Shown: piece by piece, positions 2 to 1,027 of the stretch | Layout of the letters: every line of letters starts with the position of its first letter | Position numbering within the stretch: position 1 is the first letter of the stretch | NCBI RefSeq assembly: GCF_003334385.1 | Contig: NZ_QOWN01000134.1 | Source: Escherichia coli | GTDB lineage: Bacteria; Pseudomonadota; Gammaproteobacteria; Enterobacterales; Enterobacteriaceae | Reading direction: 5' to 3' (one strand) | DNA length: 1,027 nt | Position numbers and translations under genes: made by a program | Notes under the pieces: model-generated | Told to the model about the DNA's origin: nothing | Seen by the model: the letters and a program-made list of their open reading frames with translations, nothing else | Database searches by the model: none

Positions 2-1027
2 TACATTCACCAGTCCCTGACGCTGCTGAAGCAGTTCATTCCCCAGCCCCAGCAGACGGTTGAATTCCGTATGCTGACCGTTCATAACCAGCATGGACTG
101 GTACACCTTATTCTGCTCTGCCGCCTGCTGACGAATTAACGCCACACGACGGTCTTCCAGCCCGGCAAGCACATCCTGAATGGACTGCGCTTTTTCCTGC
201 ATCTGTGCCAGACGGGACTGCTCAACGGCAAGCTGCTCTGTTGCCTGAGAAAGCCCTTCCGTTACGGTCTTCACCGATGTCAGATGGTTTATCATGAATC
301 CGTCACCGGTTGTCCAGCCAGGGTTAGCCAGAACATACTGATATCCAGCGATTTTTTCCTGCGGGGATTTCACCCGGCTGGCCTGTTCATCAATCAGCCG
401 GTTCTGCTCTGCCAGCGCCGCCCGTGTTCGTCCTTCATTATCTGAGGCTTCAGGCAAAGACATTGACGGCGTTTTATGCGCGATTTCATCTATCGTCAGT
501 GCATACTGGCGCGCTGACTCCCTGGCCTGCTCCTGATTCTGGTACAGCGTATACCATGCTGCTGCCCCCAGCATCACCAGTCCGGGTACGCCACCAACCA
601 GTCCCAACGCACCAGTCATCAGACGTGAGCCCACCGCCGTTGTACTGTTCAGCGCATTCTGGGCTGCGGTTCTGGCAGCAATATTTCTGTTCAGGCGTTC
701 CTGTGTGGCCGCCAGACGGGCTTCTGCAGCAATCTGCATCTCCGTCCCGCGGGCTGCCGCCACAGCCTGCTGTGCACGGTACACGGCTGCCCTTGCCCGC
801 GCCGTGGCAATCTGCGTCCCCCTGAGCTGTGCTTCCGCCAGTGCCACTTCATTACGTGCTGCCGTCACAAGTCCTGCCGTGGCAGACACCGCTCCGGAGG
901 CCATATTGCCAAAGTACCGGGCAACCCCGACGGCAACCAGCGCCCCCGCTGCTGTTGCCACATTATCAATATTACCGGCAACACCGTTCAGCACGCCGGA
1001 GAGCGTTTTCGTCGCTCCGCTGGCTTC
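2..1027 (-). CDS. Putative phage tail tape measure protein (tail length determinant), internal fragment; CDS continues beyond both window edges (N-terminal side past 1027, C-terminal side past 1)
   Basis: Seen in sequence: hand translation of the reverse complement from 1027 gives 342 sense codons with no stop, so the frame is open end to end. Composition is strongly non-random: Gly/Ala/Val-rich hydrophobic segments at residues ~9-57 (LSGVLNGVAGNIDNVATAAGALVAVGVARYFGNMASGAVSATAGLVTAA) and ~136-162 (LMTGALGLVGGVPGLVMLGAAAWYTLY), with Ala/Arg/Gln/Glu-rich helical stretches between and after them. Codon choice is consistently enterobacterial-like in this frame. Established knowledge: tape measure proteins are long, mostly alpha-helical, low-complexity proteins with Gly-rich hydrophobic segments. 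Inference: the family assignment rests on architecture only, not on a database hit; exact boundaries are unknown. Confidence 0.62.

Follow-up and report, generated by a model that had tools for sequence, protein, structure and literature searches.

Which strand of this stretch of E. coli DNA carries the gene, and what does that gene encode? The window, i.e., the whole stretch of 1,027 nt that was analyzed, contains on its minus strand a frame that starts at base 1027 and runs to base 2 without a single stop over 342 codons. This frame had been claimed by the first-pass annotation and was borne out by translation; the remaining five frames contain 5–19 stops each. The ORF list for the window comprises seven ORFs of at least 30 aa, the largest of which is a 133 aa ORF with a GTG start on the plus strand (424..825). 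As had been pointed out, this antisense ORF is the sole sizeable entry in the list. The minus-strand frame is missing because the ORF lister leaves out ORFs running past either end of the window. Considering base composition alone, the probability of 342 open codons in the minus frame is 1.3e-6. When the window was simulated 20,000 times with a first-order Markov model, any of the six frames was fully open in only 33 cases (0.17%). Moreover, the minus frame is open in all eight aligned homologs, down to 67% DNA identity, and is therefore genuinely coding rather than open by chance.

The pattern of substitutions was analyzed in the alignment of the window with these eight homologs, which range from 99.8% to 67% DNA identity. 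In the comparisons with the four diverged homologs (67–76% identity), the third codon position of the minus frame accounts for 62–70% of the substitutions (binomial p 1e-26 to 1e-32). In the comparisons short of full saturation, the dN/dS ratio is 0.15 against YYZ-2008 and 0.06–0.09 against 689R5, Evi and HK544; the ratio for the Klebsiella homolog, in which dS is saturated (pS 0.75), was left out. All indels among the homologs are in-frame.

Alternatively, the plus-strand ORF at 424..825 might be a real gene that replaces or overlaps the minus frame, and a GTG-started ORF is indeed present both in the window and in its relatives of at least 96% identity. However, in the homologs of 67–76% identity the same frame carries 3–6 stops and has lost its GTG start, whereas in the window it has the terminal stop only and the minus frame has none. 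The substitutions follow the codon phase of the minus strand at the low dN/dS ratios given above (0.06–0.15). The translation of the plus-strand ORF is rich in Pro, Ser and His, which is how an Ala/Gly/Leu-rich gene reads in mirror image, and no public annotation calls it. The promoter and terminator scan of the window returned no sigma-70-like promoter (0 promoters in total) and one terminator-like site against 0.8 expected, so that neither signal exceeds what shuffled sequence gives. Because internal stops have been gained and the start has been lost in the diverged homologs, the ORF is considered spurious, and its existence as a gene, which was rejected as far as sequence comparison reaches, is extremely improbable. 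It is a shadow ORF of the Ala/Gly/Leu-rich gene on the opposite strand. The accompanying warning that an annotation based on the list would mis-call the region is right in that the list hides the real frame; the risk is nevertheless an artefact of the 1 kb window, and the public annotations are correct. The lesson is a methodological one for quality control: tracks without edge-crossing frames conceal the true gene, and a spurious antisense ORF can gain weight by being listed in its stead.

To identify the product, the 342 aa translation was searched against profile collections, as had been proposed. In the PHROG database, phrog_339, annotated as 'tail length tape measure protein', matches all 342 aa with an E value of 2.6e-115. 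This match covers positions 262–612 of the 1123 positions of the profile, and the window thus encodes the central portion of a long protein. In Pfam, PF06120 (Phage_HK97_TLTM) matches aa 123–341 of the window translation (5..661, minus strand; E 4.8e-71) with the first 218 of its 295 model positions and continues past base 1. Among the tape measure families named by the first-pass annotation, the assignment to tape measure proteins as such stands, in its HK97-type form, but neither a PhageMin_Tail/TP901 match nor similarity to lambda gpH was found in the window. PF10145 (PhageMin_Tail/TP901) gave no Pfam match in either the window fragment or the full-length relative. The NCBIfam search with the 342 aa fragment returned no family, and no NCBIfam model covers the central region. 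The phmmer search of PDB chain sequences with the window fragment, gpH (8iyk_H) included, gave nothing at E ≤0.01. We also observed that phrog_19302 ('unknown function') aligns, beginning with its first position, to aa 245–342 of the window (nt 2–294, minus strand; E 5.7e-55); this family was probably built from tape measure genes that are split or mis-started in some phage annotations rather than from a separate protein.

In DNA comparisons, E. coli chromosomes match the window with 99.8% identity and phage records, both Stx-converting and other E. coli phages, with 99.5–99.6%, and every annotated DNA match is called tape measure protein. We estimate at about 97% the probability that the window lies inside gene H, the gene for the tail length tape measure protein, in a lambdoid E. 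coli siphovirus prophage (HK97/Stx-phage type), and that it is transcribed on the minus strand as part of the late tail operon V-G-T-H-M-L-K-I-J. No evidence contradicting this reading was met in the analysis. The open frame, the mapping to known loci, the phrog_339 match and the codon bias together define the window (2..1027, minus strand) as an internal segment covering codons 273–614 of 1,080, the middle third of the gene. The gene is already known, correctly annotated in public records and very common.

An open frame of this kind might instead encode a non-phage coiled-coil protein, such as a chemoreceptor or a secreted effector, or else a tape measure that belongs to a tailocin or gene transfer agent. 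The helical, Ala/Gln/Arg-rich composition would suit such proteins, and the C-terminus of the full-length relative scores 72.4 bits against the model of the RcGTA tape measure, which is below the cut-off of 220. However, all significant profile matches of both the window and the full-length relative are phage tape measure families, and no chemoreceptor or effector family was matched. In addition, the neighbors in the near-identical loci are head, portal, connector and tail genes, and such loci are part of complete Stx phage genomes. These profile matches and the gene context led us to reject the non-phage and gene transfer agent origins, whose likelihood is practically negligible.

The start, stop and neighbors of this copy lie outside the window and were deduced from loci of 99.5–99.8% identity, mainly the chromosome of E. 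coli G1/2 (L001, 99.8%) and the Stx1a phage Stx1_EH1995 (L002). In both loci, the window maps in phase to 8001..9027 within a minus-strand CDS at 6601..9843, corresponding to residues 273–614 of a 1,080 aa protein. The length of this CDS, 3,243 nt, agrees with the expectation that the gene is cut at both edges of the window and exceeds 1 kb. The genes are arranged in the order head, connector, major tail protein (V), G-like chaperone, T-like gene, tape measure gene, and M-, L-, K-, I- and J-like tail tip genes, among which the identities of V, G, T, M and L are backed by PHROG searches. Thus, in the near-identical loci, the tail assembly chaperone genes with a frameshift signal that had been anticipated on the 1027 side are the G-like and T-like genes with the heptamer A AAA AAG, and the distal tail genes anticipated on the opposite side are the M/L/K/I/J-like tail tip genes.

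The heptamer, a canonical −1 slippery sequence, is located at 10209..10203 of L002, directly before the G stop codon (...GCC AGA AAA AAG TAG). From the heptamer, the −1 frame is stop-free into the annotated T ORF, the distance from 10203 to 10176 being 27 nt (phase checked by hand). A single family of 224 aa, phrog_14766, spans both proteins, with G at 1–122 and T at 133–222, and is the G-T fusion product. From its sequence and position, A AAA AAG is predicted to be the −1 frameshift signal conserved in tail chaperone genes (Xu, Hendrix and Duda 2004, as cited in PMC5099701).

The 51 nt gap between the T stop and the start of the tape measure gene contains a terminator-like GC-rich hairpin, CCTGCTGTGGCAGG, with a run of eight Ts (L002 about 9858–9885, minus strand), which is presumably read through by antiterminated late transcription. 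On the other side of the tape measure gene, L001 harbors a 1,164 nt gene annotated as porin OmpC (4897–6060) between the M-like and L-like genes, and this gene is not present at the matching place in L002. It resembles a porin cargo gene ('moron') carried by the prophage in an unusual position.

The architecture of the entire protein was deduced from a full-length relative, which lacks Cys. Its N-terminal part matches TMP_3 (PF20155) at 83–272 and TIGR02675 (tape_meas_nterm) at 157–231, and its center matches PF06120 at 395–686 (E 1.2e-89). The C-terminal part, beyond the window, matches PF09718 (Tape_meas_lam_C) at 862–933 (E 5.5e-18) and TIGR01541 at 725–1043 with 240.8 bits, the cut-off being 104.75. 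Among PDB sequences, residues 33–465 align with another tape measure protein, 8rk3_A. In terms of families, the protein is thus a mosaic, combining a lambda-type C-terminal tip-anchoring domain with an HK97 gp16-type center. The part encoded by the window is accordingly classed by its profile match as HK97 gp16-type and not lambda gpH-type, with the lambda-like domain at the C-terminus, beyond the window.

The closest known proteins are the tape measure proteins of Stx-converting and related lambdoid E. coli prophages (e.g., Stx1_EH1995 BCI49871.1, YYZ-2008 YP_002274198.1 and E. coli WP_187027783.1), which share 96.6–99.8% DNA identity over the whole window. They are alike in the 1,080 aa gene, the frame and the neighbors, and differ from the window only by 2–35 point differences, among which is a private L494P change. 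HK97 gp16 (gene H), the founder of Pfam PF06120, shares the central domain family, the invariant hydrophobic Gly-rich segment and the position in the tail operon. It is strongly diverged, with about 37–40% aa identity over the window and in-frame insertions of 7, 7 and 3 aa relative to it. The lambda gpH protein (853 aa; chain H of PDB 8IYK/8IYL/8K35) has the same role and operon position, and residues 497–850 of gpH align with residues 744–1080 of the full-length relative (8iyk_H; E 9.4e-21), Tape_meas_lam_C/TIGR01541 being common to both. However, this alignment begins at residue 744, and gpH has no detectable similarity to the window region. The present protein is 227 aa longer than gpH, and thus a longer tail is predicted. 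The tape measure protein of TP901-1 is a functional analogue; it sets the tail length, and its hydrophobic regions are required for infectivity (PMC5099701).

Within the window, the translation is rich in Ala (18%), Leu (10%), Gln (9%) and Gly (8.5%). The Kyte-Doolittle profile in windows of 19 residues (KD19) peaks at three places in the full protein, 67–88, 287–319 and 406–434, the latter two of which are within the window. The strongest is a Gly/Ala-rich hydrophobic segment, SRLMTGALGLVGGVPGLVMLGAAAWYTLY, at aa 134–162 of the window and 406–434 of the full-length protein (542..628, minus strand), where the KD19 mean of up to 1.73 is the maximum of the protein. Nowhere in the window is conservation higher than in this segment, which is nearly invariant among ten sequences. 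G139, A140, G142, L143, G145, G146, P148, G149, G154, A155, A157, W158 and Y159 are invariant in all ten, which come from Escherichia, Klebsiella and Proteus phages and include HK97, and they form the motif G-A-x-G-L-x-G-G-x-P-G...G-A-x-A-W-Y. The weaker segment, GVAGNIDNVATAAGALVAVGVARYFGNMASGAV, is rich in Ala, Gly and Val, has a KD19 mean of 1.21–1.24 and is mostly conserved; it lies at aa 15–47 of the window, i.e., 287–319 of the full-length protein (887..985, minus strand).

The AF2 model of the window, built from the shallow ten-sequence alignment, assigned 301 of the 342 residues to helix (~88%) with a mean pLDDT of 49.9 and a pTM of 0.37. Because the model is of low confidence, it only weakly suggests that the protein is largely helical. 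Low confidence is expected of a protein that adopts an extended, oligomeric form within the tail tube. A short non-helical stretch, YVLANPGWTTGDGFMINH, at aa 228–250 of the window (nt about 278–346) is the site of in-frame deletions of ~9–10 aa among the loci L006, L009, L010 and L011, and the HK97 insertions mentioned above are located further upstream than this stretch. The indels at YVLANPGWTTGDGFMINH and the HK97 insertions fit the length variation of a ruler protein. The repeat search of the window found one 23 nt pair with 74% identity, no tandem repeats and no 11 or 18 aa units, and hence no TP901-type repeat units. In the Rfam scan of the window at E up to 1, the only match was isrG, a chance hit that scored 14.3 bits where the gathering score is 100. 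Apart from the tape measure segment, the window encodes nothing.

The private change distinguishes this copy from its relatives. The CCG codon at 362..364 (minus strand; base 363) encodes Pro222 of the window translation, i.e., residue 494, and differs by a CTG to CCG missense change. Residue 494 is Leu or Met in every sampled relative; the window alone has Pro, and the site lies in a predicted helix. A 71 nt probe over the site matched 688 E. coli records among complete genomes, none of which was identical. L494P may represent either an infrequent polymorphism or an error in sequencing.

Even if the family assignment is right, the prophage might be cryptic and decaying, and this copy might be a remnant that has lost its function and no longer yields a working tape measure. 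The copy could sit in a defective prophage because several genes of the prophage in its closest chromosomal relative, L001 (99.8% identity), are flagged as 'frameshifted': those for J, T, the major tail subunit, the portal and the capsid. The private Leu-to-Pro change in a predicted helix, found in none of the 688 matched records, would fit such decay, as would the presence of several copies in many E. coli genomes, some of which are likely defective. On the other hand, all 342 codons are intact in the window, a single missense change is no evidence of decay, and near-identical copies reside in complete annotated genomes of Stx-converting phages with intact tail modules; the frameshift flags of L001 may themselves be assembly errors. 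We consider a remnant unlikely. The flagged L001 genes are located at 1–2327 (J), 9891–10170 (T), 10581–11272 (major tail subunit), 12806–15384 (portal) and 15596–17027 (major capsid). The flags may reflect either a decaying prophage or assembly indel errors, and that of T may reflect the programmed frameshift.

As regards how the protein would act, our own data establish the family to which it belongs, its place in the operon and the frameshift signal, and the further steps are drawn from family knowledge and the literature. The largely helical protein of ~1,080 aa would depend on the G and G-T chaperones for its solubility. In lambda, the gpV tube is filled by gpH, whose C-terminal part is held by gpI in the tip (PMC12617516). 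At 0.15 nm per residue, 1,080 aa would span about 162 nm, so that by this arithmetic the tail would measure ~160 nm. At infection, the tape measure would be ejected before the DNA and would then form or line a trans-envelope conduit. In lambda, gpH* is ejected after receptor binding and forms at least a major part of the periplasmic channel (PMC12617516). The Gly-rich hydrophobic segment at aa 134–162 would insert into the membrane during this step, and, judging from its hydrophobicity and conservation, residues 406–434 most likely represent a candidate membrane-inserting or channel-forming element.

Genome injection by HK97 needs the host proteins PtsG and FkpA (Cumby et al. 2015, as cited in PMC5099701 and PMC12617516). 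A more specific proposal is that aa 134–162 insert HK97-type tape measure proteins into the inner membrane and set the inner-membrane factor that is needed from the host (PtsG-like), in which case L494P would be a functional injection variant. We regard this proposal as doubtful. If it is true and the segment is an inner-membrane inserter, the L494P change, ~60 residues downstream, would be a variant of the injection machinery and not noise.

Homologs of the window were found in 1,959 of 5,426 complete E. coli genomes (36%), at 3,817 places, six of which are on plasmids, with up to eight copies per genome. The gene is thus among the commonest prophage genes in E. coli. Its biology as a tail length ruler and DNA conduit is already established for the family; in the genomes that carry multiple copies, these provide long near-identical tracts for recombination between co-resident lambdoid prophages.
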